IMG/VR virus record: IMGVR_UViG_3300013121_000028
Span: 38,496 to 102,495 of that record
Length of the DNA stretch: 64,000 nucleotides
Source: a virus
Taxonomy: Duplodnaviria > Caudoviricetes
Strand: one strand, 5' to 3'
Position numbers and translations under genes: made by a program. Below, one piece after another: positions 33,960-59,000 of this stretch; the stretch's first letter is position 1, and each line of letters starts with the position of its first letter. The notes beneath the pieces were generated by a model that worked only from the letters and a program-made list of their open reading frames with translations, ran no database searches and was not told the origin of the DNA.

Positions 33960-34577
33960 TTAAACATTTCCAAAAAACGGTTTTGATTTTTTATTTCTAT
34001 CATAGTCAAGTATTAATGTTACTGTTGTATTTGGCTGAACAACATAATCTATAATACATTCACCATTTAATATTAAATTATCAAATTTAAATTCTGTTAC
34101 ACCTGACTGATATTGACTCGATGAGAAATCAGGTATATAATTTTCAGATGCCATTCTACCTGAAGCATCTTTACACATAACAGTCATATTCTGTGTTGCC
34201 TGAATACCCATACCACCACTATTAACCAATACTTTTATTTTTTTAACCTTCTTAGGTTCATTAATTAGTGTTTGGTTAAAATAAAATATATTTGGATTAA
34301 TTGTTATTGGTTGTACTACTCCCGAATCAGGACTACCGCCATAAGGATTATTTATATTATTATAAGCATCAAATAATCTTACATTTTGTTGAGTTGATGT
34401 ATTATTTGTTATGGTAAATTGAGAAATGTTTGAATTACCAAACTTATCTAACATATCATCAACAAGGTTAGAATAACCATCCTTACCTTTTTTGTATTTC
34501 TTATATGCTAAATAAAGTAATCCAATGCCTAAAATAGCACCGCCAACAATAAGCATATTTTTTGTATTCTTTTCCAA
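33960..34577 (-). CDS. membrane-anchored paralogue of the candidate major capsid protein
   Basis: N-terminal TM; FTITNNT...LFD...KDASG...SQYQS...PNTTVT aligns by eye with 58176-59000. Confidence 0.6.
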   Translation of the reverse strand: MEKNTKNMLIVGGAILGIGLLYLAYKKYKKGKDGYSNLVDDMLDKFGNSNISQFTITNNTSTQQNVRLFDAYNNINNPYGGSPDSGVVQPITINPNIFYFNQTLINEPKKVKKIKVLVNSGGMGIQATQNMTVMCKDASGRMASENYIPDFSSSQYQSGVTEFKFDNLILNGECIIDYVVQPNTTVTLILDYDRNKKSKPFFGNV

Positions 34578-34582
34578 TTTTT

Positions 34583-35104
34583 TTATTTTTTGTTTTTATT
34601 AATATTTGAAATATAATGTCCTGTTAATCCACCAATCAATAAACCACCTAAAGTAAAAGCCAATACATTTTTATTAAAATACTTTGCCATCAAATAACCA
34701 ATAGTACCTATACCCGCACCTACAACAATAGGTATTTTATAATTTACCTTTTCCTTATCATCACCACTTTCCTCACCTACAACATTTGACTTTTCATCAA
34801 AATACTTTCTGAAAAAATTTGAATCACCTAAATAAATATTCTTTTGTTTATCTGTTTCAGCAAACTTTAAAACCATAAAACGGAAATTCTCTTTTCCGTT
34901 ATTATTAATCTTTTGAACTACATAAATCAAATCATCTTTTTCAAGAATACCATCATCATTACCATTTGGTAATAATAATTTCATTGGAATTTCAGTTGCG
35001 TAAATTTTTCTACGACCTTCTATAATATTACTTCCATCATCCCTTCTGAAAATATCACTTTTGTTATCTTCATTTATAGTATCATTATTATTTGATTCAG
35101 ACAT
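34583..35104 (-). CDS. membrane protein with C-terminal TM hairpin
   Basis: two Gly-rich TM segments at the C-terminus. Confidence 0.6.
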   Translation of the reverse strand: MSESNNNDTINEDNKSDIFRRDDGSNIIEGRRKIYATEIPMKLLLPNGNDDGILEKDDLIYVVQKINNNGKENFRFMVLKFAETDKQKNIYLGDSNFFRKYFDEKSNVVGEESGDDKEKVNYKIPIVVGAGIGTIGYLMAKYFNKNVLAFTLGGLLIGGLTGHYISNINKNKK

Positions 35105-35129
35105 AAAAAATATTTTTAATTATTTAAAA

Positions 35130-35804
35130 TTAATAAGGTTTATTACTAACGAATTTTTCAGGAACATAAGCTATTTTTTTCATAGCCTGAAAAACAGGCA
35201 TACATCTTGCATTTGGTGGACACTTTGGATTAAACGCTATTGTTTCAACCTTTAAAAATCCTTTTCCTGTATTTGAAATATATTTAGCAAAAGGTCTATC
35301 TAATGTTAATGTTTTATCAACACTTCCAATAATATAATCACCTTTAAATTCAGGGAAGCTATAAATACTTGAGCTATCCTCTTTCAAGTAAATTAAAGAA
35401 CCACTCTTATATCCCGAAGAAGTTGTTTTTGTAGCTGTTTTACCTTCTTTAATATACTCAGTACCATACTGTTGAAAAGCCTTTCTAATAAAACTATTAT
35501 TATAATCTCCCGATAAAGATAAATCAATTTGTTTAGCATAGCTTGGATATTTTTTATTTACCCATGCACGGAAATTATCACCCTCTTTTTTATTTGTAAA
35601 TGGAGTTGAAGGTAACTGAATAGTTCTTGGAGGAGAGTAAGAACCTTGACTTGCTTTTTCTTGTTCTTGTTTTTCTTTTTCTTCTTCCTCTTGCTTTCTT
35701 TTTTCTTCTTTATCCTTTTTATTTTTCCAAAACAAGAAAGCACCACCACCAATTATAAGTGCTGATGCTATACCAATCCAAATTAATTTTTTATTATTTG
35801 CCAT
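35130..35804 (-). CDS. N-anchored membrane protein
   Basis: TM, charged linker, GDNFRAWVN module, possible SH3-like end. Confidence 0.6.
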   Translation of the reverse strand: MANNKKLIWIGIASALIIGGGAFLFWKNKKDKEEKRKQEEEEKEKQEQEKASQGSYSPPRTIQLPSTPFTNKKEGDNFRAWVNKKYPSYAKQIDLSLSGDYNNSFIRKAFQQYGTEYIKEGKTATKTTSSGYKSGSLIYLKEDSSSIYSFPEFKGDYIIGSVDKTLTLDRPFAKYISNTGKGFLKVETIAFNPKCPPNARCMPVFQAMKKIAYVPEKFVSNKPY

Positions 35805-35844
35805 TTTTTGATTTTTTGAGATTATTACTGTTTATTATTTATTT

Positions 35845-36591
35845 TTATAAAGGTATTCCATTAAGAACCCCTTCATATATTACATATATCTTACCACCTT
35901 TTTTAGTAGCATCACGCATTACCTGACATATACTCTTTTTTTGTGGTTGAGAAAACTTTCTATTTAAACAAGTTGGAGGATTTTTAATCAGAATACAAGA
36001 ATCACACCCGAAAGGGAAAACACCAACACGACCTACGTTATTATATATAAATGAATTACCGAAAGATGTGAATTTAGATGTATCACCACCTGCGTTCCAA
36101 TTATTTTCAGATAGTTTACAAGTAATCTTACAGTTTACCCCTGAAACACAACTAATATCAATAGTTTCTTGTGCATTTGGTACTCCTTTAAAATCATTAT
36201 TTAATGCAAATTCAAAAATATTCATACCTAAATGGAACTTTGTAGTATCAGGACAATTATTTGCATAATCACCAAATGCTAAGTTTCCATTAAATCCTTT
36301 ATCACATGGGCTTTTATAACTAACCGTATCGTTTGGAGGTAATGTAAAATAACCTTTTAATCCACTTTGAGTAATTCCAAATATACCATTTACATTAGTT
36401 ACATAATTAGTATCAGCACCTATTGTCAAGAAAACATTAACTGTATCTTTTGTTGCATTTATAACACAAACCTCTGTATTTTTGTTATCCGAATCGCAAC
36501 ATTTTTTATTTTCAAAACACTTTTCATAAGTGAAATACGAAATAACACCAACAATAATTAGAAACAAATAATAGTAAAATCTCTTTTTCAT
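35845..36591 (-). CDS. Cys-rich secreted/anchored protein, possibly thaumatin-like
   Basis: IFEFALNN...TIDISCVSGVN resembles the thaumatin EFTL...YDVSLVDGYN pattern; many Cys. Confidence 0.45.
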   Translation of the reverse strand: MKKRFYYYLFLIIVGVISYFTYEKCFENKKCCDSDNKNTEVCVINATKDTVNVFLTIGADTNYVTNVNGIFGITQSGLKGYFTLPPNDTVSYKSPCDKGFNGNLAFGDYANNCPDTTKFHLGMNIFEFALNNDFKGVPNAQETIDISCVSGVNCKITCKLSENNWNAGGDTSKFTSFGNSFIYNNVGRVGVFPFGCDSCILIKNPPTCLNRKFSQPQKKSICQVMRDATKKGGKIYVIYEGVLNGIPL

Positions 36592-36603
36592 AATTATTAT
36601 ATG

Positions 36604-36792: not shown

Positions 36793-36819
36793 TTTATTAT
36801 TTTTTTTTATTATTTATTA

Positions 36820-37350: not shown

Positions 37351-37361
37351 TTTAATATTTT

Positions 37362-37715: not shown

Positions 37716-37735
37716 TTTAATATTTATTATTTAAT

Positions 37736-42946: not shown

Positions 42947-42951
42947 TATTA

Positions 42952-43418: not shown

Positions 43419-45056
43419 TTATTCAGCTTTAACAGACTCTAATAAGAGTTGATTAAAATCACCTAAATCAAAAGGCTTAACCGATTCTGCATTTAAAGGC
43501 ATAATATTGTTTTCAAGCACCTGTCTTTCACTAACTTTTTGTGGTTGATTGAATTTATTTACAAAATCATCAAAATTATCATCCGCAATAGATGATAATA
43601 ATTTCGATTTATCTATTTCTTGATAAATTAAAATTATTTTTATGTTTGAATTAGGCTCTACTCTTAGTCCTGTAAACCATTGATTTATACCTAATATTAA
43701 AGGTGCTTTACCATCTTCAATAGGAAAATCCAACATACCTATGCCATTTTGGAACTGCATTGTACCAACAGAAAGACTTGGAGTTTTTGGTTCAAAACAT
43801 TGATTTCCATTTGCATCTTTAGTGGTTTGAAAGAATGTTTGGTTAAAATTTACCGAATTATCAGAGTAATAATATATTCTTCTTACCCAATAAGGATTAT
43901 AAAGACCATTTCTTACAAAGAAATTATAATTCGTTGAACCACCTATATATTGAGTTATTGTGCTTAAAGGTATAAATGAGTTTAAAGCGGGTACACCAAC
44001 AGCATCAGAAGAAGCGTATAATATATTATTTAAACTTGAATAAGCTAAAGTTAACCTATCAAAATTTTGTGGAAATATTGTTGTTCCTAATAAAATATCA
44101 GTATTAGTATCAATTCTTAATAAATTACCCGAACCACCATTAAGACCAACTCCATACATAGTTCCCGAAGATGTATGTAAAAAGAAATCAGTTGATATTT
44201 CGGTAGGTAAAATATTAGATATAAAAGTATCTGTACTCGTATTATAAGTCCATATACCCGCAGAAGAAACACTTCCTATATATAATTTATTTAAAGTATT
44301 GTTTATTCCAACAGAAAAAGGTGCAATTAATGGGGATGGTACTGAAAACAAAAATATATTTAAGTTTAAATCTAATTTTATTAAAGTGTTCAATCCATTA
44401 TCTACCGTATATGCAAAATTTGATGATGTTATAGCTATCCTTTGCGGTGTCATACCTATCAATGGAATAGCAAATAATATAGCGTTTGTTACACAATCAA
44501 CTATAACGACACCACCATTTTGTGATATTACCCAAGTGTTATTATTTGAATTGTACTCTATCCAATTAACTCCCAAAAAAGGTAATGGTACGTTTATTAT
44601 TAAACCTTTAGTTGTTGCATTAAAAATATCAATACTATTAAAAATACCACCAATAGCCATTTTATCATTAACAGGACTATAAGATATTGATGTAATATTA
44701 AATAAACCCGTAGGATAAGAATTAAAAGTTTGTGTATTTATATCATAAACATAAATATTACCACCACCTAAATTTTGACCACCCCAAATTTCATTTAAAT
44801 TAGAATTATATTCAACTGCCTTTGATTTATACGGTGCAGGTGATATAGGTGTATATGTTTGTGGTGCTGTTCCCGAAACAGAAGTTGGAGATGTTGGATA
44901 ATTAAATAAATTTGGCTGTTGTGGGTCAAACGGATTGAATATTACAGGAGAACTTGTTGGATTAGTAAATATAAATTCATCAATATCAAATGCTTTATTA
45001 TTAATATTGAAATCAATTCCTAATCTTTCGGCTTCTAAGTAACCTGTTTTTTTCAC
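43419..45056 (-). CDS. capsid-like domain with inserted beta-propeller (minor capsid/turret candidate)
   Basis: about seven ~40-aa YVTN-like blades, flanked by FIFTNPT...PFD and KDANG...QFQ segments homologous to 58176-59000. Confidence 0.6.
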   Translation of the reverse strand: MKKTGYLEAERLGIDFNINNKAFDIDEFIFTNPTSSPVIFNPFDPQQPNLFNYPTSPTSVSGTAPQTYTPISPAPYKSKAVEYNSNLNEIWGGQNLGGGNIYVYDINTQTFNSYPTGLFNITSISYSPVNDKMAIGGIFNSIDIFNATTKGLIINVPLPFLGVNWIEYNSNNNTWVISQNGGVVIVDCVTNAILFAIPLIGMTPQRIAITSSNFAYTVDNGLNTLIKLDLNLNIFLFSVPSPLIAPFSVGINNTLNKLYIGSVSSAGIWTYNTSTDTFISNILPTEISTDFFLHTSSGTMYGVGLNGGSGNLLRIDTNTDILLGTTIFPQNFDRLTLAYSSLNNILYASSDAVGVPALNSFIPLSTITQYIGGSTNYNFFVRNGLYNPYWVRRIYYYSDNSVNFNQTFFQTTKDANGNQCFEPKTPSLSVGTMQFQNGIGMLDFPIEDGKAPLILGINQWFTGLRVEPNSNIKIILIYQEIDKSKLLSSIADDNFDDFVNKFNQPQKVSERQVLENNIMPLNAESVKPFDLGDFNQLLLESVKAE

Positions 45057-45069: not shown

Positions 45070-45915
45070 TTAAGCTCTTACTCTATTATTAATTGGGTGG
45101 CTAACTATACATTTATTCTCTAACTCACCATTATTGAACTTTTTCATAAAGTCGTTTAATATTAAATATCTTCTATGGTTAAGTGCATTATTAGCTCCTC
45201 TGAATACATTTAAAAATGCGTATTGAGCCTCAATATATGGATAGCCCAACGATAAATAAATATTAAGTGCATTAATATCCGCACTAACTTCATCACCTAT
45301 TTCTCTATCAATTTTAGGATTCATGTATTTATGAGAAAATTCATGAAGTAATATCACCATTCTCATTGGTACTGAATATTTTTCAAAATCAACTTTTGAA
45401 ACTTCGATAACTCCTGTATTATGACCAACCCTTGCAGGTGTTCCAACAAAAGCACCTGTTTGTCTATCTCTTATTTTATTATAATAATCAATACAGAATT
45501 TACCATCATCTGAACGATAAATACTCGGCTTATAATCACCTGCTGATAGTGTATCGGCATTTGCAGAAAACCATTTAGCAAATTCTACAAAAGACTTAAC
45601 ATCATTATCCATCCATAAAGGACAGGTTTTTAATTCAGCTACATCAAATCTTTTAATACTAAATGAATTATCAACTTGATTGTTTCTTGGTTGTCCATTT
45701 TTTCTGTTAGTTATTGATAACACCATGTTGTATGGTGTTTGAGGAAACTTTAATTCAAATTCCCTATAACCATTAATCTCACCGTTTCTATTTATATATA
45801 TTGTACTTGGTTGCATCCCATCATAAGCCACGATATTTAAATATTCAGGACTGTTTGTTTTAATTCCTAAAATTAATGAGAATGGTATTGTATTTGATGG
45901 TATATTGAAAATCAT
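45070..45915 (-). CDS. zincin metallopeptidase (maturation protease candidate)
   Basis: ILLHEFSH followed by DEVSAD (HExxH plus ExxAD). Confidence 0.8.
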   Translation of the reverse strand: MIFNIPSNTIPFSLILGIKTNSPEYLNIVAYDGMQPSTIYINRNGEINGYREFELKFPQTPYNMVLSITNRKNGQPRNNQVDNSFSIKRFDVAELKTCPLWMDNDVKSFVEFAKWFSANADTLSAGDYKPSIYRSDDGKFCIDYYNKIRDRQTGAFVGTPARVGHNTGVIEVSKVDFEKYSVPMRMVILLHEFSHKYMNPKIDREIGDEVSADINALNIYLSLGYPYIEAQYAFLNVFRGANNALNHRRYLILNDFMKKFNNGELENKCIVSHPINNRVRA

Positions 45916-45941: not shown

Positions 45942-46445
45942 TTAAACCATTTTTATGTTTTGAGTTTTCATTTTTTTATAACCATAATAAGCTACAAATC
46001 CAACTAATATTCCTAAACCTATTCCAACTAATAATTGTTGCTTTGTCATTCCGAAAATTTTACCATCATCATCATTAGACTTAACATCAACATTTGGTTT
46101 ATTTTCAGATTTTGTTTCGGAAACAACAGATGTCGTAACTACATTTGATGAATTATCAACAAAATCCTTGCTTTTAACAGGATTTCCTGAAACATCAAGT
46201 ATAAGATTACCATTAAAATCAACAATATTACCTTTTGAATCAGTTGGTAATGGCATAGAAAGACCACCACTTTTAGTTGTAAAAGTATCAGGATTATAAC
46301 CTTCAATTTTTATTACATCACTTAATTGACTAACACCTGTTACATCCAAAAAACCTTTTTCATCCCATAATCTATCACCGTATGTACCCAAACGATAATA
46401 TTTTGCAGGTTGTTGGTTTATATTTAAAGTTTCTTTAATATACAT
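45942..46445 (-). CDS. GMPK-anchor family membrane protein
   Basis: DDDGKIFGMTK + TM + YKK; start moved to ATG 46445 to avoid overlap. Confidence 0.7.
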   Translation of the reverse strand: MYIKETLNINQQPAKYYRLGTYGDRLWDEKGFLDVTGVSQLSDVIKIEGYNPDTFTTKSGGLSMPLPTDSKGNIVDFNGNLILDVSGNPVKSKDFVDNSSNVVTTSVVSETKSENKPNVDVKSNDDDGKIFGMTKQQLLVGIGLGILVGFVAYYGYKKMKTQNIKMV

Positions 46446-46449
46446 GATA

Positions 46450-46935
46450 TTAATTTTTTGATTTAATAATTTTATATGTAATAAATCCACCGATAGCTAA
46501 TACAGCAATTCCTAATCCGATAGCCAATCCTTTTGGCATACCTAAAATTTTACCATCACCATCATCAATACCTTTACCCAAATTATCATCAGATGATGAA
46601 TCAGCCCTTCCTTGTTTATATTCCTGTTGAGTGGCATATTGTTGTTTTATTTCTTCAAGTTCTCTTTTTGCTCTTTCAAGCTCTGCTGTTTTTTCTTGAG
46701 CAGATGCCTTTGCGTTTGCAACTTCATCATTATATCTTTTCAAACAGTCATTATACTCCTTCATTTTTTGTTTTTGTCTTTTTCTACCAATCAAAGCTCC
46801 ACCTAATCCGAATATAGGTGCTATGTTAATTGGTTTTTTGCAACCCGTAATTTGTCTTAAACTTTTTCTTGAAGTTATTTCAGAATAACTGTTTTCAAAA
46901 TCAGTTGTGTTTAATGTATCTGTTGTTTCAATCAT
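46450..46935 (-). CDS. GMPK-anchor family membrane protein
   Basis: CKKP...YNDCL, coiled coil, KILGMPK-TM-basic tail. Confidence 0.75.
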   Translation of the reverse strand: MIETTDTLNTTDFENSYSEITSRKSLRQITGCKKPINIAPIFGLGGALIGRKRQKQKMKEYNDCLKRYNDEVANAKASAQEKTAELERAKRELEEIKQQYATQQEYKQGRADSSSDDNLGKGIDDGDGKILGMPKGLAIGLGIAVLAIGGFITYKIIKSKN

Positions 46936-46965
46936 GACTTCTATTATTATTATTAGTATAATTAA

Positions 46966-47952
46966 TTATTTTTTTGCAATAAACTTTTTGTAAACTATAA
47001 ATCCGCCAACAGCCAAAATAGCAATACCCAACCCTATTGCCAATCCTTTTGGCATACCAAGTATTTTATCATCACCATCATTATTATCAACATCAGTTGA
47101 ATCAATACCTGTATTATCTAACGGTAAACCTTTATCTCTATCAGATTTAACAGCATCAATTATTTTAGCCAATTCCTGTGCATTAACAACGGGTGCTGTA
47201 TCTCCTGCAATTTGATTTTCATAGCTTTGAGATTCAGAACTACCATCTTTAAATGGATTTTTCTTTGCTCTTGTTGTAGCTATAAGACCTATAATTGAAG
47301 CGACTACGGGTAATCCCGCAATTATATATGTTGATACAGCAACTTCTTCTGAACCTGTTGGATAAGCATAAGTTTCATAAAGGCTATCGTAATCACCATT
47401 AAATGTTGATGTACGCTCTTTTCTTGCCTTTGATTTTTTTGTTTTAAAAACAGGTTTATTCCAAGCACCCGAAATAGCTTCTCTTAACTTTTCTCTATTT
47501 CCACCAATCTTATCTTCCCAAAAATTAGCAACCTTCTCCCATGCTCTTTTTGCGTTTTGAGCATTTTCAATATCAAAATTGTATTTTATTAAATCTTCAT
47601 CACTCAAAAATGCAGGATAAAGTCTTGATGAAATACCAAATAAATTAACCCTAAATGCAAGTAAAGCAGAACTTCTCGGTACAGCAACAGCAGGGTTATA
47701 TGTCAAAAACGTCGCTTTAAGACCTCTTTTAAGGTTATCATTATGAACAATGTCCTTTGTTGTTTGCTTAATATTTTTACCCGCATCCTTTAGTGTTCCC
47801 TTAATATTCTTCCCCGCATCAGAAACAGCTTTTTTAAATTTTGCTCTGCGTTTTTTCTGACCTTCAGTTTCTTTGCCAATACCCAATAAACGAAAATTAG
47901 AAAAATCTTCATCTAACAAATTACCATTTATGACATCTAAATTGTTTTTCAT
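46966..47952 (-). CDS. GMPK-anchor family membrane protein, tandem paralogue
   Basis: near-duplicate of 47953-48963 over the N-terminal ~190 aa. Confidence 0.75.
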   Translation of the reverse strand: MKNNLDVINGNLLDEDFSNFRLLGIGKETEGQKKRRAKFKKAVSDAGKNIKGTLKDAGKNIKQTTKDIVHNDNLKRGLKATFLTYNPAVAVPRSSALLAFRVNLFGISSRLYPAFLSDEDLIKYNFDIENAQNAKRAWEKVANFWEDKIGGNREKLREAISGAWNKPVFKTKKSKARKERTSTFNGDYDSLYETYAYPTGSEEVAVSTYIIAGLPVVASIIGLIATTRAKKNPFKDGSSESQSYENQIAGDTAPVVNAQELAKIIDAVKSDRDKGLPLDNTGIDSTDVDNNDGDDKILGMPKGLAIGLGIAILAVGGFIVYKKFIAKK

Positions 47953-48963
47953 TTATTTTTTCGCAATAAATTTTTTATAAACTATAAATCCACCGATAGC
48001 TAATACCGCTATACCTAATCCGATAGCTAATCCTTTTGGCATACCAAGTATTTTATCATCAGCATCACCGTTACCATCGCCTGAATCAGCATCACTTAAA
48101 TCAATACCTGTATCATCTTTAGGCAAACCCTTCGCTTTATCCGATTGTGCAGAAGCTATAATATTATTTAATTGCCCTTGATTTACAGGAGGCATAGATT
48201 GACCTGCCATCTGATTATCAAAAGCTTGTGCTTCAGGACTTCCTTCATTATATGGATTTTTCTTTGCTCCTTTATCAGAAATAATTTTAACTATACCGCC
48301 AACGACACTTAAACCCGCACTAATATAACCTGCAATAGCAGAAGCACCACCATCTGTATAATTAGAATAATCTTCATAACCATCATAACTTGATGTACTT
48401 CTTTTTCTCGCCTGTGATTTTTTTGTTTTAAAAACAGGTTTATTCCAAGCACCTGAAATAGCTTCTCTTAATTTATTTCTATCACCACCAATTTTATCTT
48501 CCCAAAAATTTGCTACTGATTCCCAAGCTTTCTTTGCATTTTGAGCGTTTTCAATATTGAAGTTATACTTTATTAAATCTTCTTCATTTAGAAAAGCAGG
48601 ATATAACCTTGATGAAATACCAAATAAATTAACCCTAAACGCAAGTAAAGCGGAACTTCTTGGTATAGCGATAGCAGGATTATATGTCAAAAATGTCGCT
48701 TTAAGACCTTTTTTAAGGTTTTGATTATGAGTAATATCTTTTGTTGTTTGCTTGATATTTTTACCCGCATCTTTTAATGTTCCCTTAATATTCTTTCCCG
48801 CATCAGATAAAGATTTTTTAAATCTCGCTTTACGTTTTTTCTGAGCTTCTGTTTCTTTACCTATACCCAAAAAACGAAAATTAGAAAAATCTTCATCTAA
48901 TTTTTCCACATTGAGATTATCCATCCCATGAAGATATTTTTGTAATTGACGTTTTGATTCCAT
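47953..48963 (-). CDS. GMPK-anchor family membrane protein, tandem paralogue
   Basis: RSSALLAFRVNLFGISSRLYPAF domain; KILGMPK-TM-KKFIAKK. Confidence 0.75.
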   Translation of the reverse strand: MESKRQLQKYLHGMDNLNVEKLDEDFSNFRFLGIGKETEAQKKRKARFKKSLSDAGKNIKGTLKDAGKNIKQTTKDITHNQNLKKGLKATFLTYNPAIAIPRSSALLAFRVNLFGISSRLYPAFLNEEDLIKYNFNIENAQNAKKAWESVANFWEDKIGGDRNKLREAISGAWNKPVFKTKKSQARKRSTSSYDGYEDYSNYTDGGASAIAGYISAGLSVVGGIVKIISDKGAKKNPYNEGSPEAQAFDNQMAGQSMPPVNQGQLNNIIASAQSDKAKGLPKDDTGIDLSDADSGDGNGDADDKILGMPKGLAIGLGIAVLAIGGFIVYKKFIAKK

Positions 48964-48975
48964 AAACTTAATTAA

Positions 48976-49392
48976 TTAAAATCTTTTAAAACCACGAAAC
49001 ATTCTTGGTTGATTAAAATAATTGTTATTATTATTAATCGGCATAGACGATTGTGGTTGGCTTTGTGTTGCTTGATTTGGTAAAGTTGGTAAAGGTAAAG
49101 CATTGTGTTTTTCCCAACCTTTTACCATTTGACCTTGACCTGACATAACATTTGTTAGTTGGCTTTGTGTCGCTTGAATAGTAGCAATATCATCCTTATG
49201 TTTATTACCTAATCCTTTTCCCCAACCAAAATTTTTACCTTTATTTTCTTTTACTTTTTTCTTCTTCTTTTTTCCAAACCCAAGAAAATCAGATTTTTCA
49301 TCTGATGATTCACCTTTACGTTTATTCCAAACATAAAGACCGATTCCCGCAACCGCAAGTACACCAAGTCCAATTAATACTTTTTTATTCAT
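48976..49392 (-). CDS. N-anchored membrane protein
   Basis: MNKKVLIGLGVLAVAGIGLY, identical to the N-terminus of 49450-49977. Confidence 0.7.
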   Translation of the reverse strand: MNKKVLIGLGVLAVAGIGLYVWNKRKGESSDEKSDFLGFGKKKKKKVKENKGKNFGWGKGLGNKHKDDIATIQATQSQLTNVMSGQGQMVKGWEKHNALPLPTLPNQATQSQPQSSMPINNNNNYFNQPRMFRGFKRF

Positions 49393-49449
49393 TTTGTTTA
49401 TTTTTTTAAGTTGATTGTTTATGTTTATTTATTGTTGTTTGTTGTTTAT

Positions 49450-49977
49450 TTAAAAGTTAGCAGGGTTTACCATTAAAGTATTTGATTGTAATGATGTTGG
49501 TGTATTTGCTATTGAAGCTCTGATGTTTTTAACCCTAATAACACGACTACTACCATCACCACCATAATAAAAATTAGGAATATACGGAGTAGCTACCGAA
49601 GCAACACGCCTTCCTTGAAATATTGGTGCATTATTATCAACACTATTTAAATATCTTGGACATTCAGCTTTATACGGACATGAACCACAATCACCATCAA
49701 CTCCTGAAGCCGTAGCAGTAGATGTTCCTACGGGTTTTGGTTTATTACAACAACTTGCAACTCCTCTTTTAGTACACGCAATTTGGTCTGACGTACAAGA
49801 AACTTGGTTTAAAATACCTGTACCTAAACCAACACCAATACTACCTAAACTTCCTATCGCATTAGATTTATTTTCATCAGATGATGTTTCTCCGTCTTTA
49901 CGACGTTTATTAATGATATATAGACCGATACCCGCAACTGCAAGAACCCCTAATCCTATTAATACTTTTTTATTCAT
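49450..49977 (-). CDS. N-anchored Cys-containing membrane protein
   Basis: same N-terminal anchor; seven Cys in two clusters. Confidence 0.7.
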   Translation of the reverse strand: MNKKVLIGLGVLAVAGIGLYIINKRRKDGETSSDENKSNAIGSLGSIGVGLGTGILNQVSCTSDQIACTKRGVASCCNKPKPVGTSTATASGVDGDCGSCPYKAECPRYLNSVDNNAPIFQGRRVASVATPYIPNFYYGGDGSSRVIRVKNIRASIANTPTSLQSNTLMVNPANF

Positions 49978-49988
49978 ATTATTTGTGT

Positions 49989-51218
49989 TTATTTTTTAGC
50001 AATAAATTTTTTGTAAACTATGAATCCACCAACAGCCAAAATCGCAATACCTAACCCTATTGCCAATCCTTTTGGCATACCTAAAATCTTTTCTTCATCA
50101 TCAGGGATACCATCACCATCTTCATCAACACCTTCTTCATCATCTTCAGTTTCTTCACCTGCACTTTCATCATCTTTTGAACCCGCACCATCTTCATCAC
50201 CTTTTTCCATTAAATCCTTAATTTCAGAGTCGTCTGCTTCATTTTCTTGAGGCTCATTACCCGCATCAGCACTTGCCTCTTGTTCGTATTGAGCATATTC
50301 TTCACTACCTTCTGCATAGGGATTTTCATCTGCTTTATTTCTATTGAATAAACCTTTTAACCAAGCAAAGAAAGCACGAATACCTTTTACTTCTTCCTCT
50401 TGTGATGGAACTTCTTCTTCCCCTGTTTCTTCATTATAAACACCTTCTGATGAATTTACTTCTTCTCCATCAACACCATAAAATTCAATATTAGGATTTG
50501 TAAGATTAGTGTAATTTGAAGGGGTATAATAAGCGTATAAAGCATAACTATCATCTCCATTAAACGACTTATATGGTGCTTTCAAAAATCTTTTTGAATG
50601 TCCTTGAATAATTGCATTTTTTAAATCTTTTTCATCACCACCAAGAGATACCCATTGTTTTACAACATCATTATACATATTTCTTGTTTTAGAAACATGG
50701 CTCTTTTTGTATTTTCTTTTTGCTACATTACCATCACTTGCAACTGCGGGATATAATCTTGAAGCTGTTCCGTGAATATTATTCTTAATATTGAATAATA
50801 TACCCTTTCTCATTACTCCACGAAGTTTATTTCTTAGTTTTTTACCTGCATTACCAACTCTTTCTTTTATAGAAACAATTCTTTTCTTAACTCCCTCTCT
50901 TATTTTCTTAGTGCTTTTCTTAACTTTTTCTTTTAATTTAGTTGTGCTTTTTTTAACGCTTTCCTTAACTTTCTTAATCACACTTTTACGGTTAGGGTCG
51001 TTAATACAAGCTTTGTATCTTGCCTTTGCATCAACACACGATTGATTAGTTACTGTTTTTACAGTAGGAACATTTACGCATATTTGTCTTTTACCGACTT
51101 TTCTGCAATTTCTTTTTGTTCCCATTACTCTTTTTCTAACAGAGCAAACAGGTGGTAAACCACAACCTGATGCGTTTGAAAAATCGTTATCTAATAAATT
51201 TGAATTTAGTGTGTCCAT
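49989..51218 (-). CDS. GMPK-anchor family membrane protein
   Basis: Cys hairpin, basic helix, SRLYPA domain, acidic linker, KILGMPK-TM. Confidence 0.75.
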   Translation of the reverse strand: MDTLNSNLLDNDFSNASGCGLPPVCSVRKRVMGTKRNCRKVGKRQICVNVPTVKTVTNQSCVDAKARYKACINDPNRKSVIKKVKESVKKSTTKLKEKVKKSTKKIREGVKKRIVSIKERVGNAGKKLRNKLRGVMRKGILFNIKNNIHGTASRLYPAVASDGNVAKRKYKKSHVSKTRNMYNDVVKQWVSLGGDEKDLKNAIIQGHSKRFLKAPYKSFNGDDSYALYAYYTPSNYTNLTNPNIEFYGVDGEEVNSSEGVYNEETGEEEVPSQEEEVKGIRAFFAWLKGLFNRNKADENPYAEGSEEYAQYEQEASADAGNEPQENEADDSEIKDLMEKGDEDGAGSKDDESAGEETEDDEEGVDEDGDGIPDDEEKILGMPKGLAIGLGIAILAVGGFIVYKKFIAKK

Positions 51219-51237
51219 AGTAATATATATTATTTTT

Positions 51238-52350
51238 TTATGACTTCATTATTTTTCTAATAACCATAAATGTTCCTAAAGCCAATACAGCCACTCCAAC
51301 TGTGATGGCAACATCTTTTGGCATACCGAGTATTTTGTTTTCCTCAACAGGTAATCTTTTTGAAGTTGTTGGTCTTGATTTTGCTGATTTTCGTGATTTT
51401 TTCTTTTTCTTTGGTTTACCACTTTCTTCTGCTTCATCATCCGTTTCAATTTCAGTTTCAGTTTCTTCTGTTTCAGTTTCAACTTCTTCTTGAGTAGGTT
51501 TTGTATTACAACCACGTTTTATCCAACTATTAATAGCACTTTGAGGTGCATTACCAAAAGTTTGACCTGCAATAATTCCATATTCATCACTCAATTCCTG
51601 ACAAGTCCACTCTTGATATTCATCAAAAGGTTGTTCAGGTTCAGTTGGTTGTGGTGGCGGTGGTGGTGGTGTGTAATACGTCGGTGGTGGTGGAGTCGGT
51701 TGTTCAATAGGCAACAAACCTTTTGACATCATCTTTAATTCCTGTAATCCACCATTACGTTTAAATTCTCTCCATTGTTTTCTCCAACCCGAAACCCACT
51801 TAAAACGAGGCATATTAACACAAACTTCTTCCGCTTCTGTATATGCTTGAGGAACTTGAATAGTTTTACATTCTTGTCTTGTACCGCCAATAAATCCACC
51901 TAAACATTTTTCTTTACGTTCAGTACATTCAAGTTTTAAATTCCATTTAACACAAACTGATGAACAGTTTATGTTTGAATCCCAATGAGTATATGGAACA
52001 TTAACACAAACTTCTTTATCTACCATTCTTACTTTTGGTACTTGAACGGTAGCACATTTTCTTACTGTTGTTGATTCAATATGAGCCTTCCCATATTGAG
52101 ATTTCATTTCGGCTTTTTTTGCACGAACTAATTGTCTGAACTTAGGTAAATCAGTTTGCGACGTATCTCCTACCTCACCTTCTTCATTTTCATATTCAGT
52201 ATAATCTTCATTTTCTGTTTCAGCTTCTCCCTCTGCCTCACCTTCTGTATCACCAATAGCATTATGATAACCATACCTGTTATTACGGATATAATTATTA
52301 GCCATTAAGCTACTATCAAGTAAATTATTATTTATCGGGTCAAAGCTCAT
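51238..52350 (-). CDS. GMPK-anchor family membrane protein
   Basis: Cys/Val beta-hairpin, poly-Pro, CQELS...GCNTKP module, KILGMPK-TM. Confidence 0.75.
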   Translation of the reverse strand: MSFDPINNNLLDSSLMANNYIRNNRYGYHNAIGDTEGEAEGEAETENEDYTEYENEEGEVGDTSQTDLPKFRQLVRAKKAEMKSQYGKAHIESTTVRKCATVQVPKVRMVDKEVCVNVPYTHWDSNINCSSVCVKWNLKLECTERKEKCLGGFIGGTRQECKTIQVPQAYTEAEEVCVNMPRFKWVSGWRKQWREFKRNGGLQELKMMSKGLLPIEQPTPPPPTYYTPPPPPPQPTEPEQPFDEYQEWTCQELSDEYGIIAGQTFGNAPQSAINSWIKRGCNTKPTQEEVETETEETETEIETDDEAEESGKPKKKKKSRKSAKSRPTTSKRLPVEENKILGMPKDVAITVGVAVLALGTFMVIRKIMKS

Positions 52351-52370
52351 ATTAATGATGATTATGATTA

Positions 52371-52919
52371 TTATTTTTTAGCGATAACTTTCTTATAAAC
52401 TAAAAAGCCACCGATTAAAGCAACAGCTATTCCCAAACCAATTACTACACCTTTTGGCATACCAAATATTTTTCCATCACCATTATCACTACCGCTATCT
52501 TCTGATTCAAAAGCTTCATCATCATCAGATGATTCTCTTTGAGCAGAATCATCATCATTTGTTGGTTTTGCTTTAACAGGTGCTTGTTTTGGTGTAGGTT
52601 TTGGTACAGGTGTATGAGCAGATTCATCAGATGCCGTGTTTGATGGTTTTGTATTACAACCACGACGTATCCAACTATTTCTTACTTTTTCATCAGCAGT
52701 ACCAAATGATTGACCTGCGATAATACCAAACTTATTACTCAAATCCTGACAACTTAATTCATCATATTCATTTTGAGTATCAGAAGTTTCGGGTAACATT
52801 GACCTTATACCTCCTGCAATAGTTGCAGTTTGTAAAGCTATCGGTGCTTCAAGTACAGCTACTCTTGCACCATCAAAACCAAATAAATCTGTGTTATTAT
52901 TAATTAAATCTGTTTGCAT
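52371..52919 (-). CDS. GMPK-anchor family membrane protein
   Basis: CQDLS...GCNTKP module; KIFGMPK-TM. Confidence 0.75.
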   Translation of the reverse strand: MQTDLINNNTDLFGFDGARVAVLEAPIALQTATIAGGIRSMLPETSDTQNEYDELSCQDLSNKFGIIAGQSFGTADEKVRNSWIRRGCNTKPSNTASDESAHTPVPKPTPKQAPVKAKPTNDDDSAQRESSDDDEAFESEDSGSDNGDGKIFGMPKGVVIGLGIAVALIGGFLVYKKVIAKK

Positions 52920-52955
52920 TTTATGTATGTTTTTAATGATTAACGAAAATTATTA

Positions 52956-53483
52956 TTAGGCATTTTTAGCTTTAACAATCTTATAAGCAACAAGTCCCAA
53001 TACAGCAACTCCTAAAGCAACACCAATACCTATTGCTAATCCTTTTGGCATACCAAGTATTTTATCATCACCATCATCAGATGAACCACCTCTGTTTTTA
53101 TACGAAGATGCTTCAGCCTCTTTTGCTCTTGCTTCTGCTTCAAGTCTTGCTTTTTCAAGCTCAAATTGTCTTTTTCTTTCTTCTCTATCTAAACAGGCAC
53201 GGAAATCATTCCATTTACGTTTGTTTAACGGATTTTCTCTAATCAAAGGCTTTTTACAAGTACCCTGAGATGCTCTGTTTTGAGAAATACCCGAAGCAAC
53301 AGCAGTAGTTAATTGCAAACCTGCCTGAATAGTTTCAGGATTTACATATTGTGAAGCATCACCACCACTATAATTTTGATTACTACCGTAGGCGTAAAAC
53401 ATTTGACCGTTTTTATACCTTTCACCTGTCATAGACGGTGTGTTTAGTATATCTCCTTTGTTTAATAGATTTTCGTTAAGCAT
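52956..53483 (-). CDS. GMPK-anchor family membrane protein
   Basis: CKKP...FRACL, coiled coil, KILGMPK-TM. Confidence 0.75.
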   Translation of the reverse strand: MLNENLLNKGDILNTPSMTGERYKNGQMFYAYGSNQNYSGGDASQYVNPETIQAGLQLTTAVASGISQNRASQGTCKKPLIRENPLNKRKWNDFRACLDREERKRQFELEKARLEAEARAKEAEASSYKNRGGSSDDGDDKILGMPKGLAIGIGVALGVAVLGLVAYKIVKAKNA

Positions 53484-53514
53484 TGTTTTATATTTTAGTT
53501 TTACTTTTTATTTT

Positions 53515-54093
53515 TTATGGAGTTAAATCCAAACTTTTAATTGATTCACCTACTGTTGATGATGATGCTGTTGCGGTTGATGCGGTTGCTGATGCGACAT
53601 CACTACTACTGCTTGATGTTTTACCTTTTCCACCTTTACCAAACTTCTTATATAATAAGTATCCACCAACAGCTAAAGCAACTAATCCTAAACCGATAGC
53701 TAATCCTTTTGGCATACCTAATATTTTACCATCATCACTCTTTTCTTTTGATTTACCATTACCACCATAATTTTTGTTAGGTAAATTATGGGAAAAGTTA
53801 TCATCAGAATTATTATCAGTAGCATTATTATTTCTTTCAATTCTACCCGTGTTTTGGTAATTCTTAGTAGGGTCGTTAATAGGCTGTTGCATTTGTGGTG
53901 GCATTTGCATTTGTTGTTGCATTTGTGGAGGCATTTGCATTTGCTGACCACCATCTGCATTATTCATATTATTACCATTACCTTGTTCCATATTCGGATT
54001 TTGTGCTACTTGTGCTGTTTTTTGTAGTCTTTCGCTTTTCAAATTATTTGATACGTTTTCGTCAAGTAAATTTGCGTTTGATAATTGTGTCAT
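53515..54093 (-). CDS. GMPK-anchor family membrane protein
   Basis: Q/M/N low-complexity region; KILGMPK-TM followed by an S/T-rich tail. Confidence 0.75.
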   Translation of the reverse strand: MTQLSNANLLDENVSNNLKSERLQKTAQVAQNPNMEQGNGNNMNNADGGQQMQMPPQMQQQMQMPPQMQQPINDPTKNYQNTGRIERNNNATDNNSDDNFSHNLPNKNYGGNGKSKEKSDDGKILGMPKGLAIGLGLVALAVGGYLLYKKFGKGGKGKTSSSSSDVASATASTATASSSTVGESIKSLDLTP

Positions 54094-54135
54094 AGTTTTG
54101 ATTTTTTTGGTTTGTTATTATTTTATTTGATTGAT

Positions 54136-54684
54136 TTATTGGTTTGTTTGAAATTCTAAATTTCCTTTTATTACATTTCTTCCTTTTGGTATTATGTTTG
54201 ATGCAAAATTTGTAAGATTATTTTTTAAAATATCCTCAAAAACATCTACATCACTCTCTTTTATACCATAATTTAATAAAACTTCTTTCTTTGTTTTAAT
54301 ATTACCCTTAGTGTCCCACTTTCCGTCTTTTTTTGCATTAATAAACCCAACTAAAACATGATAAAATTTTTGTTTTTTATAATCATCTATATCAATAGTG
54401 TTATTTAGTGCTGATAAGTATGATTTCAATTCATCTTCAGTATTAGCATCAACTTTTTGTGCCATACTGATTAGTTCATCTTCAGTTATATTTTTACTAA
54501 CTGATTTTCCTTTTGATAAATCAATACCTAAACCAAGACCTAACCCTATTCCGCCACCAATCAACAATGTTTTAGTTAATTCTAAACCTTTATCTTTTCC
54601 CAATGTTTTTAAATAAACATAAGCTAATGCAGTACCGCAAACGATACCCCAAACTGTCGCATATTTATATATTGGTTTATTCAT
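54136..54684 (-). CDS. membrane protein with N-terminal TM hairpin
   Basis: two Gly-rich hydrophobic segments, then a helical domain. Confidence 0.6.
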   Translation of the reverse strand: MNKPIYKYATVWGIVCGTALAYVYLKTLGKDKGLELTKTLLIGGGIGLGLGLGIDLSKGKSVSKNITEDELISMAQKVDANTEDELKSYLSALNNTIDIDDYKKQKFYHVLVGFINAKKDGKWDTKGNIKTKKEVLLNYGIKESDVDVFEDILKNNLTNFASNIIPKGRNVIKGNLEFQTNQ

Positions 54685-54698
54685 TTTTAATTATTTTA

Positions 54699-55433
54699 TT
54701 AGAAACCTAATTTTGCACGGTATTTATACGCCATAAATCCTGCAACAGCAATAAGAGCTACGATTCCTACTTTAGCACCCATTGACATTCCATCATCTGA
54801 TTTTGTTTCAACAACAGTTTGTTTAGTAACAACTCCCGTAGGTGTTGTCTGTGTTGTTGTTGTTGTTTTTGTTGATGATGTTGTGCTTGGTTTTGAAGCC
54901 ATTGGCATACCGCCTCCGCCACCACCCATAGGCATAACAGGCATACCTGTTGGTTTTGGTGCTGTCGTTGTAGTGGTAGTAGGTTGAGTAACTGTTGTTA
55001 CAGTTTGTGTTGGTGTTGGTGATGGAGTTGCCATTACAACAGGTTCAGCATAAATTATACTTTGTAAATTTCCTTGTGGATTAGCAGGTGAAGCATACGG
55101 AGGTAAAGCCTCTGCTACAACAACTGCTTCAGCAGGTACAAATGTCTGTGAAGGTGCAGGTGCAAATGCCTGTGAAGGTGCAGGTGCATTTTCTGCTGAT
55201 AATGTTGGTACAATAGAAGCTGTTGGTGCAACTTCAGCAACCGTTTGAATTGGTGCAGGTGCAACTTCAGCAATCGTTTGAATTGGTGCGGGTGATGATA
55301 CAGTTTCAACCATCATCGGAGATGCCACAGGTTGTAACGAAGCTGTATCCATCATCATCATTTCACCGTTAGCACCATAAAATACATTAACGGGTTGAAA
55401 TTTTGCAAATTTATCTGAAACAATTCTTCTCAT
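54699..55433 (-). CDS. mucin-like Pro/Thr/Ala-rich protein with C-terminal TM
   Basis: APAP and TTTT tracts; DDGMS + TM + YKYR (divergent anchor). Confidence 0.7.
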   Translation of the reverse strand: MRRIVSDKFAKFQPVNVFYGANGEMMMMDTASLQPVASPMMVETVSSPAPIQTIAEVAPAPIQTVAEVAPTASIVPTLSAENAPAPSQAFAPAPSQTFVPAEAVVVAEALPPYASPANPQGNLQSIIYAEPVVMATPSPTPTQTVTTVTQPTTTTTTAPKPTGMPVMPMGGGGGGMPMASKPSTTSSTKTTTTTQTTPTGVVTKQTVVETKSDDGMSMGAKVGIVALIAVAGFMAYKYRAKLGF

Positions 55434-55463
55434 TTTATTTAATTTTTTTAAATGTTATTATTA

Positions 55464-56372
55464 TTAAGCTTTAACTGCTTTACCCGCAATCATTTTATAT
55501 GCAACAAAAGAACCAATAGCGATTACACCTATTGCAACAATTCCAAATGTTACAGGCGACATACCTAATATTTTTGTTTCTTCCTTATCCTTATCTTTAT
55601 CCTTCAACGATTCAAGTTCCTTATCTGTTGGTGCTTCACCAAATGGAACTCCCGAAGTATTTCTATTAACCAATACATTTACTAAATTGGTTATTTCGTT
55701 AAGAACACCACGACCACCTTCTGATGAAATCCAATCCTTGAAACCTTTTTTGCTACCACTTTGTTCATAGGCTTTTTTCATTGTTTCAGCATCAACCATA
55801 TCAACATTTGGGTCGCTTATTTTTGCTAAAGCATCTTCATCAGGTGCTATTGTTATACCTGAATAAGCTTCATTAGTATTATATTTTAAAGGTGCGTTCA
55901 ATAACGAACCTGAATCAAGTTTATCAGAGTTTAATAAATCATATCCAAATCCTGTTGCTCCTGAAAACTTAGATGCTAAAGCACCTTCAGGAACACCTGA
56001 TAATCGTTTTTGAGCTTGTGCAATTAAATCAGATGCACCGATTGCTGTATAATGATTTTTATTTTTAAGAATAAAATCATAATAAGGAGAAACGGTATTA
56101 GCAGGTATCATTTCTGATGTTGAACGACCTAACTTTTGTAACACCAACATTTTTTGTGGCTTACCAACAAGTTTACCTTTTTTATCTTTAGGTAAAAAAT
56201 ATGAAATATACCCTTGAACTTTTGTTCTTGTGTCCATTAAGGTATTTCCTATCTTGATTAATTTTGATGGTTTACCACTTGTGGTTTTATATCTGAATGT
56301 TGAATCTGTTGTTATCCAAAGATTATCAGGTGCTTTTTCAATTTCTGCTACTACTGTTTTAGTTGTTCCCAT
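55464..56372 (-). CDS. GMPK-anchor family membrane protein (divergent)
   Basis: TKILGMSP + TM + YKM..K. Confidence 0.7.
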   Translation of the reverse strand: MGTTKTVVAEIEKAPDNLWITTDSTFRYKTTSGKPSKLIKIGNTLMDTRTKVQGYISYFLPKDKKGKLVGKPQKMLVLQKLGRSTSEMIPANTVSPYYDFILKNKNHYTAIGASDLIAQAQKRLSGVPEGALASKFSGATGFGYDLLNSDKLDSGSLLNAPLKYNTNEAYSGITIAPDEDALAKISDPNVDMVDAETMKKAYEQSGSKKGFKDWISSEGGRGVLNEITNLVNVLVNRNTSGVPFGEAPTDKELESLKDKDKDKEETKILGMSPVTFGIVAIGVIAIGSFVAYKMIAGKAVKA

Positions 56373-56404
56373 TGTGATTTTTATTTTAAATTTTTTATTT
56401 TAAT

Positions 56405-56647
56405 CTATGATTTCAAAAACTTTTTGAAGCTTGGTAAACCTGTGTCGTTTGAATTTGTTTCGTATGCTACATATCCACCAACAACAGCACCAATCAACGT
56501 ACAAAAAATAATTTTCTTCCTTATTATTAGCCCTGTAATTCCACCTATCAACGCCCCCACAATCGCACCGTTTCTATATATTTCAAATTCCTTATTTGGC
56601 TTATCAACAAAGTTGGAAATTTTTTTATCTTTTTTACGCCTTCCCAT
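56405..56647 (-). CDS. small glycine-zipper 2-TM protein
   Basis: GAIVGALIGGITG and IGAVVGGYVAY. Confidence 0.65.
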   Translation of the reverse strand: MGRRKKDKKISNFVDKPNKEFEIYRNGAIVGALIGGITGLIIRKKIIFCTLIGAVVGGYVAYETNSNDTGLPSFKKFLKS

Positions 56648-57537: not shown

Positions 57538-57542
57538 AAGAT

Positions 57543-58085
57543 TTATGCCAACTTACGGTTTGTTAAAGCAATAACACCAAACACAAGTGCCAATGAACCA
57601 ACAATGATTAAAGGCATATTATCTTTGATTTTTTCTTTTATTTGACCGCCATCAAAACCTGACTTCATAGCATTACAACCATTACAATCTGATTTTTCAG
57701 CATCAAATCCTGAACCACAACAATTAGATGTTTGTTCATTATTTACTCCTGATGTTTGTTCACCACCACAACCTGATGTTTTTGTTGCTACTTTAATGTT
57801 TTGAGCAATATTTTCAAGTTCTGATTTTGTTGGAACATCATTATTTATAATTGAACGAGGTTCAACTTCAGTATTTTTGTCCAAAGAAAATCTCCAAGCA
57901 AATAAATCCTTATCGGGATGTATGTCAGCAATATCTTTCATGAAATCCTCACGGAATTTCAACAAAAGATAATTTACTTTTTTCCACAAATCACCTTGAT
58001 TTTTTGCGGGAGATAAACCATACTTAACAACCAACCTTTGTAGTTCAGGTTGTTTAGTCATAAAAACATAACGTATAGTATTCAT
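57543..58085 (-). CDS. C-anchored membrane protein directly downstream of the capsid candidate
   Basis: IHPDKDLF helical domain, six tandem S[GND]xx[G]-like motifs, C-terminal TM. Confidence 0.65.
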   Translation of the reverse strand: MNTIRYVFMTKQPELQRLVVKYGLSPAKNQGDLWKKVNYLLLKFREDFMKDIADIHPDKDLFAWRFSLDKNTEVEPRSIINNDVPTKSELENIAQNIKVATKTSGCGGEQTSGVNNEQTSNCCGSGFDAEKSDCNGCNAMKSGFDGGQIKEKIKDNMPLIIVGSLALVFGVIALTNRKLA

Positions 58086-58101
58086 AAGTGTTTTTTTTAT
58101 T

Positions 58102-58150
58102 AAAAAGAAAAAGGCAAAGCAATTTGAATAAATCGCCTTGCCTTTTCTTT
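58102..58150 (-). terminator. intrinsic terminator downstream of the capsid candidate
   Basis: on the - strand, GGCAAGGCGATTT-ATTC-AAATTGCTTTGCC hairpin plus T tract; the two mismatches are G-U wobbles only on the - strand. Confidence 0.85.
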
Positions 58151-58175
58151 AAGGTTAATCTATACCTACTAATTA

Positions 58176-59000
58176 TTACTTATTAGCAGGGTCAATCATC
58201 AAATTCTGACCGATTCCAAGTGGTGCAGGTGCAAACATTGGCACAGCAACAGGAACAGCAGGATTTGCGTAAACTTGTTGTTGGTCTTGACCGTTCAAGT
58301 TACGAGCAGGATTAACTTTCTCCGCAGGGAAGAATGTGTAAGTCGCTGTTGTATTAGCTAAGATTGGGAATGTCAAGTAAGTATTACCATCAATCTTCAC
58401 AGGATACGGCACATCCAAAATTGTGCTTTGGAATTGGTTCGCTGAGAAATAAGACTGAGTGATGATAGGAATTTGACATAATTGACCGTTAGCATCCTTG
58501 CTTGTAAGTGTCAAGATTTGAGTAATCTGCGACGGGTTAGAAGTTTGGATACGAATCAATGATGTTTCAAACGGCTGACTTGCAGATTGTTGTAACAATT
58601 CAAGGTAAGATACGTTTGATTGAGCAGGAGTAACAGTTACACCAACTGACGAACCGAAGTTGTTAGTTAATAAGTAAGTGTTTAAGCCAAACAAAATACA
58701 AGTAAGAGTACCTGCGGTAGTGTTTGTTACGTTTACTTGGTAAGGAGTCGGTTGTTTAGCAGGAACAACGGCAGGGCTTCCGCCATTTGCACTATAATAA
58801 CCATTTCCGTAACCATTTCCACGATAAGCCATAGGGCTACCGTAACCGTAAGCTCCACCTTGATAAGCACCTGTGAAACCACTTTGCATCATTGGAGGAT
58901 TTTGACCATAAAAGTTAAGGTCTAATTCACCATCTCCGATTGCATTAGAGAATTGCTTCTCTGCGAATGACAAATATTTGTCAATGTTCATGTTTTTCAT
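58176..59000 (-). CDS. candidate major capsid protein (non-HK97, single jelly-roll-like)
   Basis: first large gene of the late block; has its own terminator; visibly C-ending/high-expression codon use; ~150 aa mostly-beta core with two paralogues in the window; G/Y-rich N-terminal arm. Confidence 0.55.
   Translation of the reverse strand: MKNMNIDKYLSFAEKQFSNAIGDGELDLNFYGQNPPMMQSGFTGAYQGGAYGYGSPMAYRGNGYGNGYYSANGGSPAVVPAKQPTPYQVNVTNTTAGTLTCILFGLNTYLLTNNFGSSVGVTVTPAQSNVSYLELLQQSASQPFETSLIRIQTSNPSQITQILTLTSKDANGQLCQIPIITQSYFSANQFQSTILDVPYPVKIDGNTYLTFPILANTTATYTFFPAEKVNPARNLNGQDQQQVYANPAVPVAVPMFAPAPLGIGQNLMIDPANK

Follow-up and report, generated by a model that had tools for sequence, protein, structure and literature searches.

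A probable jelly-roll domain in free, membrane-anchored and propeller-bearing forms in the late gene block of a large virus

The Halopanivirales (the Thermus phages P23-77 and IN93 and the archaeal SH1, HHIV-2 and HCIV-1; formerly Helvetiavirae) are tailless, membrane-lined viruses with paralogous single jelly-roll proteins and a small ATPase gene near their coat genes, and they offer the nearest described design to the one we report here from a 64,000-nucleotide stretch (hereafter, the window) of the IMG/VR virus record IMGVR_UViG_3300013121_000028 (positions 38,496 to 102,495). The window encodes three paralogous proteins, P0001, P0002 and P0003, which share one domain of ~150 aa that is likely a single jelly-roll; the tailless, membrane-lined character of this virus we infer from its genes. 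In P23-77, which has a genome of 17 kb, the gene order is ATPase, ORF14, VP15, VP16, VP17, and Sphaerolipoviridae genomes are ~30 kb (PMC12643093). Another point of comparison is Salisaeta icosahedral phage 1 (SSIP-1; JN880423), an unclassified, membrane-containing, tailless phage of a Bacteroidota-related host with a circular genome of 43.8 kb, which is large for this build. The shell of PRD1 is built from a double jelly-roll protein, and both the PRD1 penton P31 with its spike P5 and the adenovirus penton base combine a jelly-roll with a host-binding module, a likeness to P0003 that comes with no sequence relation that we could find.

Our results suggest, with a probability that we would put at about 55%, that the three genes belong to the virion-building block of a large tailless, membrane-lined virus in which a single ~150-aa jelly-roll was duplicated and in which P0001 forms the shell. 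The features on which this reading depends are as follows, with coordinates in the window.

58176..59000, minus strand: P0001, 274 aa, free jelly-roll (predicted), probable major shell protein
58266-58748, minus strand: P0001 core, residues ~85-245, from the AlphaFold2 model
Flanks of the P0001 core: N-terminal helix (residues 6-17), disordered Gly/Tyr-rich linker (18-77) and Pro-rich tail
58108..58147, minus strand: terminator-like hairpin (stem of 18 bp, then a T run) immediately 3' of the P0001 stop codon
43419..45056, minus strand: P0003, 545 aa, jelly-roll (predicted) split by a propeller
44922-44987, minus strand: P0003 strands 1-2, residues 24-45
43968-44873, minus strand: P0003 YncE/YVTN-type propeller, residues ~62-363
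43602-43967, minus strand: remainder of the P0003 jelly-roll, residues 364-485
P0003 acidic helical tail: residues 486-545
33960..34577, minus strand: P0002, 205 aa, membrane-anchored jelly-roll (predicted)
P0002 N-terminal hydrophobic helix: residues ~7-25, followed by a Lys-rich stretch
33993-34430, minus strand: P0002 core, residues ~50-195

P0001, P0002 and P0003 are paralogs in three architectures. An initial annotation, made from the letters alone, had aligned the three by eye, and the open reading frames (ORFs), coordinates, minus strand and motifs that it quoted are all present in the sequence. The common domain that it proposed is borne out by significant BLASTP and hhalign scores for each pair. 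Pairwise BLASTP among the three gave E values of 3e-5, 6e-4 and 1e-4. Collections of 351 (P0001), 16 (P0003) and 18 (P0002) homologs yielded family alignments of 58, 14 and 18 sequences, respectively, and in hhalign comparisons the P0001 and P0002 families matched over 131 columns, the entire domain (97.4% probability, E = 1.3e-11), with P0001 versus P0003 at 93.3% (E = 2.7e-7) and P0002 versus P0003 at 92.6% (E = 4.6e-7). When the three family hidden Markov models (HMMs) were run against every ORF of the contig, the only matches were among the three paralogs themselves, and because the models cross-match only each other, this is a specific three-member set rather than compositional noise.

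Database searches placed the domain in no described family. Pfam and PHROG gave no match for any of the three proteins, nor for any other jelly-roll family member tested, and a search of the ESM Atlas with the P0001 core returned no usable match. Nothing meaningful was found by megablast or tblastn against 50,697 phage records with the region, P0001 or the ATPase of related viruses described below. Sequence-profile searches of the PDB with the jelly-roll and ATPase families gave P-loop-level matches only.

Assignment of the fold relies on structure prediction. An AlphaFold2 model of P0001, built from the 58-sequence alignment, has a confident core at residues ~85 to 245 (pLDDT 80-93) with eight main strands and two short helices, preceded by the short conserved helix and the disordered Gly/Tyr-rich linker. 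Foldseek with the whole model was noisy and returned collagen-like matches from the disordered Gly-rich linker, which is why we relied on linker-trimmed P0001 in VIA-align, run against 48,161 PDB representatives, with the top 1,000 Foldseek chains re-examined. The structural neighbours were nearly all jelly-roll sandwiches. The model is an eight-stranded unit of ~150 aa in two sheets that superposes on known jelly-rolls, so the proposal in the initial annotation that the unit is a single jelly-roll agrees with the model and is likely correct. Viral coat proteins are frequent among these neighbours, with an AlgX module, CBM32, nucleoplasmin and PHM scoring level with them; the model supports the jelly-roll class, and the fold alone is no proof of a capsid role for P0001. 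The P23-77 capsid proteins VP16 and VP17 are absent among the 50 VIA-align neighbours listed, which is still compatible with a distant relationship to VP16/VP17 or VP4/VP7.

P0001 is likely the highly expressed copy. As a proxy for translational selection, we scored how large a share of two-fold NNY codons ends in C. P0001 has C at 36 of its 65 NNY codons (0.554, compared with 0.186 genome-wide; binomial p = 4e-11) and ranks first among 125 ORFs, with the next-ranked ORF of the contig at 0.379, while P0002 and P0003 rank 109 and 84. The same bias recurs in relatives: the P0001 ortholog ranks 1 of 119 in a 97-kb relative (G001; 0.613), first among the 41 ORFs sampled on a 375-kb contig (0.586) and 5 of 72 in a distant 68.8-kb relative (G004), and six extra paralogous genes on the 375-kb contig have ordinary codon bias. 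Between distant relatives, moreover, no other protein is as well conserved as P0001. Taken together, the codon bias, the hairpin and the conservation of P0001 support one abundant and two minor forms. The initial annotation had called the 274-aa protein the major capsid protein; its abundance gains support from the first rank among 125 ORFs, replicated in relatives, and from the terminator-like hairpin, and its part in shell formation, like the membrane link, surface display and receptor binding proposed for its paralogs, we infer.

P0003 carries a propeller within a loop of the domain. The inserted part of its model is a confident seven-bladed propeller (pLDDT > 90) that superposes on E. coli YncE, its best Foldseek match (7seu_D; E = 1.7e-17, TM 0.82, rmsd 3.1), and some P0003 homologs carry the precomputed Pfam propeller families PF25174, PF21783 and PF01436, one being annotated at source as a YVTN family beta-propeller protein. 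Confidence in the P0003 model is only moderate to poor over the jelly-roll (pLDDT 40-80), and for this reason the insertion was checked by sequence. With residues 59 to 363 removed from the P0003 alignment, residues 25-58 and 364-485 give a single in-register alignment with residues 44-192 of P0138 (the database form of P0002, 198 aa, which begins at an ATG 7 codons downstream), and deleting the propeller improves the P0002-P0003 comparison from an E value of 4.6e-7 to 4.1e-10 and from 102 to 144 columns. The propeller therefore lies between the second and third strands, a site that would be the C-D loop under consecutive B-to-I lettering of the strands; the length of this strand 2-3 loop varies within the P0002 family too. 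The propeller and its place in a loop of the domain, as the initial annotation had read them, are confirmed by the YncE superposition and the propeller-deleted alignment. Among P0003 homologs, mean pairwise identity is 34% for the propeller (down to 20%), compared with 49% and 57% for the jelly-roll pieces. Divergence on a kept scaffold is the pattern that would be expected of a host-recognition module. The known propellers of this type, E. coli YncE and the archaeal YVTN proteins, are free periplasmic or surface-layer proteins, whereas that of P0003 is nested in a jelly-roll loop within a virus structural block.

P0002 is the membrane-anchored form. Its N-terminal hydrophobic helix, after which comes the Lys-rich stretch, is kept in homologs, in agreement with the transmembrane segment noted in the initial annotation, and its TTG start at position 34577 is backed by homologs that begin MENKTKNIL.

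These observations suggest how the three proteins could work together. P0001, the abundantly made copy, would build the protein shell. P0002, a low-abundance copy held in the membrane by its helix, would plausibly join the shell or a vertex to the internal membrane. P0003 may be a low-abundance vertex or spike subunit whose conserved scaffold plausibly co-assembles with P0001 and whose strand 2-3 loop propeller plausibly presents a host-binding module.

The setting of the three genes is consistent with a structural role. The window is the final 64 kb of a 102,495-bp contig (G000; GC ~28%) whose completeness CheckV estimates at 53%. Genes lie on the plus strand up to ~14.9 kb and again beyond a 44-kb minus-strand block (14,883-59,000) that we treat as the late block. 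All three jelly-roll ORFs fall within this block, spread across 25 kb: P0001 is its first gene, P0003 lies midway and P0002 further along. A predicted membrane segment, defined as a hydrophobic 19-mer and used as a proxy for a membrane-rich virion, occurs in 30 of the 56 late-block ORFs compared with 7 of 113 elsewhere, and many of these membrane ORFs have a common C-terminal anchor. When every contig ORF of 90 to 100 aa or longer was scanned with Pfam and PHROG, the matches included a lysozyme/transglycosylase, an amidase, a lipase, a nuclease, a 'polyvalent'-protein ADP-ribosyltransferase and an SNF2 helicase, and no terminase, portal or capsid family is among the matches listed. Three large late proteins had no match in a phmmer search against the PDB. 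The host is probably a member of the Bacteroidota.

Relatives extend the picture. Scanning IMG/VR with the P0001 profile recovered the syntenic 97-kb relative, in which all three paralogs are kept in place, as well as distant relatives at 30% identity. One of the latter, the G004 genome introduced above (IMGVR_UViG_3300046369_001149), is a linear genome of 68,799 bp, assessed as complete, with perfect inverted terminal repeats of 127 bp; a P0001 homolog next to an ATPase gene is the sole jelly-roll family member that the HMM detected there, with no second adjacent copy. This genome also encodes RecT, RusA, a zeta-toxin domain, glycosyltransferases and giant multi-domain proteins of 963 to 1387 aa. 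The protein-primed polymerase family PF03175 was not found in any record searched, G004 included. At the other extreme, a 375,071-bp contig of a GTDB metagenome-assembled genome labelled Bacteroidota (G005:C16; JAVTWD010000016.1), at whose ends no terminal repeats were found, carries a P0001 ortholog at 62% identity. Homologs of P0001 also occur on contigs of 148.5 kb (G006), 232 kb and 238 kb.

The ATPase that adjoins the family in relatives is a 270-aa P-loop protein with Walker A at residue 11 and LLLIEDI as Walker B. In G004 and in another relative (G002), the P0001 homolog lies just downstream of this gene, while on the 375-kb contig the ATPase (96573-97409, 38% identity to that of G004) is beside a P0001 paralog and ~18 kb upstream of the P0001 ortholog, and on the 148.5-kb contig it is ~16 kb from the P0001 homolog. 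Its Pfam matches are sub-threshold (AAA_22, DUF87-HerA and Zot), its look-alikes in the ESM Atlas are viral proteins of ~270 aa, some with Zot or DUF87, and in hhalign its profile matches the putative P23-77 packaging ATPase (85.9%, E = 5.3e-6, 143 columns). The contig studied here ends 5 kb beyond P0001, so that, by comparison with the 375-kb layout, an ATPase module with further paralogs probably lies just past the contig end. A Walker-like string in the window ORF 53515-54093 was rejected as an ATPase because it sits in a low-complexity tail after a membrane anchor.

The 375-kb contig also shows that three forms are an undercount. The initial annotation's three guises hold for the contig analysed here; on the 375-kb relative, a second module (within 91,000-116,000, and 5 to 20 kb upstream of the P0001 ortholog) contains six further P0001-profile genes flanking the ATPase, encoding proteins of 340, 370, 265, 152 and 137 aa and one of 699 aa with three or four tandem jelly-roll repeats. 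Searching 1.84 billion representative proteins with a profile of the family gave 1,387 clusters (50% identity) at E <= 1e-3, of which 167 were at E <= 1e-30. The family includes many two- and three-domain proteins of 313 to 574 aa (e.g., P0158, P0159, P0162, P0167, P0172 and P0174), and ten of the longer multi-domain members had no significant Pfam match. It is possible that these tandem members are fused double or triple jelly-rolls.

Compared with the Halopanivirales, then, the likeness lies in the paralogous single jelly-roll proteins, in the small ATPase gene near them (ATPase followed by a jelly-roll gene in G004, recalling the P23-77 order) and in the alignment of the relatives' ATPase profile with that of P23-77, a weak relation only. 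The differences are that the paralogs here are dispersed over 25 kb instead of adjacent, that one copy is highly expression-biased where the Halopanivirales have two co-major proteins, that the genome is at least 102 kb (69 to 375 kb in relatives) rather than the 17 kb of P23-77, and that the host is probably bacterial of the Bacteroidota. Membership in the Halopanivirales is not established. The SSIP-1 genome is 2 to 8 times smaller than those of this group, and the module inserted in P0003 differs from those of PRD1 P31/P5 and the adenovirus penton base in being a seven-bladed propeller.

Several points weigh against a shell-forming role for P0001 in a virus of the tailless type. Codon bias is only a proxy for abundance, and the weak jelly-roll part of the P0003 model leaves that assignment to sequence alignment. 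No ATPase was found on the contig itself or on its close 97-kb relative. The jelly-roll family scores below 1% in hhalign against P23-77 VP16 and VP17, so that P23-77 was rejected as a jelly-roll sequence relative, and SSIP-1 was likewise rejected, the jelly-roll and ATPase profiles finding nothing significant among all of its ORFs. With as many as seven or more paralogous genes per genome, the roles assigned to individual members are guesses. Finally, at about half a genome by the CheckV estimate, the contig could be missing hallmark genes, and a hidden capsid protein, of the double jelly-roll or HK97 type, is possible among the late proteins other than P0001 and P0003, the two that were modelled.

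In one alternative, which we regard as unlikely, the virus is indeed tailless and membrane-containing and P0001 is an abundant vertex or penton, decoration or adhesin-like protein, with another late protein, such as a double jelly-roll, as the true major capsid protein. A penton needs few copies, yet P0001 tops the codon bias ranking in three genomes, and its homolog is the only family member detected in the complete 68.8-kb relative, where it stands beside the ATPase. The double jelly-roll families PF09018 and PF04451 had no match either, but control genomes were equally silent, which makes this a weak test. More improbable in our view is a very divergent jumbo tailed phage whose HK97 capsid, portal and terminase genes fall outside the sequenced half or have diverged too far to be detected, with the jelly-rolls serving as head-decoration, cement or tail-fibre tip proteins. 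Such a phage would fit the ~53% completeness, the PHROG matches labelled 'tape measure', 'tail protein' and 'baseplate hub', and the presence of the tailed-phage jelly-roll cement or tail proteins of KHP40, Pam1, Kp7 and VP1 among the P0001 neighbours listed. However, the PHROG 'tail' matches may stem from the lysozyme, transglycosylase and peptidase domains that Pfam detected, and the gene family is adjoined by a small P-loop ATPase (HerA/Zot-type matches, weak) rather than by a terminase. The terminase families PF03237, PF03354 and PF04466 (Terminase_6N, TerL_ATPase and Terminase_3) had no match on the contig, its 97-kb relative, the complete G004 genome or the jelly-roll contigs of 375 kb and 148.5 kb, and Phage_portal (PF04860) and HK97 Phage_capsid (PF05065), one Pfam family per kind, had none on the same contigs. 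The complete relative and the 375-kb contig thus lack all five tailed-phage families tested; the one weak terminase match is on another contig (C168) of G006, which, like G005, is a metagenome-assembled genome. This is likely a virus other than a conventional tailed phage.

A non-icosahedral particle, either a pleomorphic or enveloped vesicle virion or a transfer agent with P0001 as an abundant matrix or membrane spike protein, seems to us slightly more improbable still. The membrane-protein load of the late block is exceptional (30 of 56 ORFs), P0001 has no basic DNA-binding arm, and one paralog is membrane-anchored, all of which would suit a vesicle. Against this, relatives have a candidate packaging ATPase, and the jelly-roll neighbours of P0001 are mainly lattice-forming coat proteins. 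As far as is known, moreover, genomes of 70 to 375 kb depend on active packaging by a motor and on a container that is rigid.

A broader proposal is one that we advance tentatively and rate at somewhat short of an even chance: a widespread, undescribed lineage of tailless, membrane-lined bacterial viruses without terminase, with genomes of ~70 to > 200 kb (possibly 375 kb), in which one single jelly-roll family builds the particle and has radiated within each genome into a highly expressed shell form, anchored forms, loop-insertion forms with receptor-binding propellers, and tandem fusions of two and three domains. The membrane-containing tailless prokaryotic viruses that we checked (P23-77, Sphaerolipoviridae and SSIP-1) have genomes of ~17 to 44 kb. 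Among bacterial viruses, large genomes are not known outside the tailed phages, with their HK97 capsids and terminases, and a full-text literature search found no paper on tailless-type jelly-roll bacterial viruses in this size range. If the jelly-roll family does form the shell, the jelly-roll and small-ATPase design would scale to 70 to 375 kb in bacteria, and a single-jelly-roll capsid on a large bacterial virus would bear on the evolution of the Varidnaviria, as the initial annotation remarked. Such a lineage would preserve in living form, with genomes as large as those of jumbo phages, the stages between single-domain and multi-domain jelly-roll capsid proteins. The radiation within genomes would give material on the origin of capsid, penton, spike and perhaps double jelly-roll proteins from one ancestor. 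The family is large, at 1,387 clusters. Among ~50,000 deposited phage genomes there is no relative of the jelly-roll protein or of the ATPase.

Other genes of the late block deserve mention. At least eight late proteins encoded at 45942-56372 (minus strand) share a C-terminal DDGKI[LF]GMPKG motif, after which come a membrane helix and a short, basic end, and this anchor family is compatible with a membrane-rich particle. Directly upstream of P0003, a 281-aa protein (45070-45915, minus strand) has an HEFSH zinc-protease motif and is among the few late proteins with a counterpart in the distant G004 genome (38% identity, E = 1e-44); it is a candidate virion maturation protease. Upstream of P0001, a 490-bp gap contains a 30-codon ORF (59195-59287, minus strand) that falls below ORF-calling cut-offs and encodes a single hydrophobic helix. 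The gene that follows P0001 (57543-58085, minus strand; counterpart at 33833-34237 in G004) keeps its position across distant relatives. Its small product combines an HPDK motif and a Cys-rich stretch with a membrane helix at the C terminus, and may act as a partner to the jelly-roll protein.

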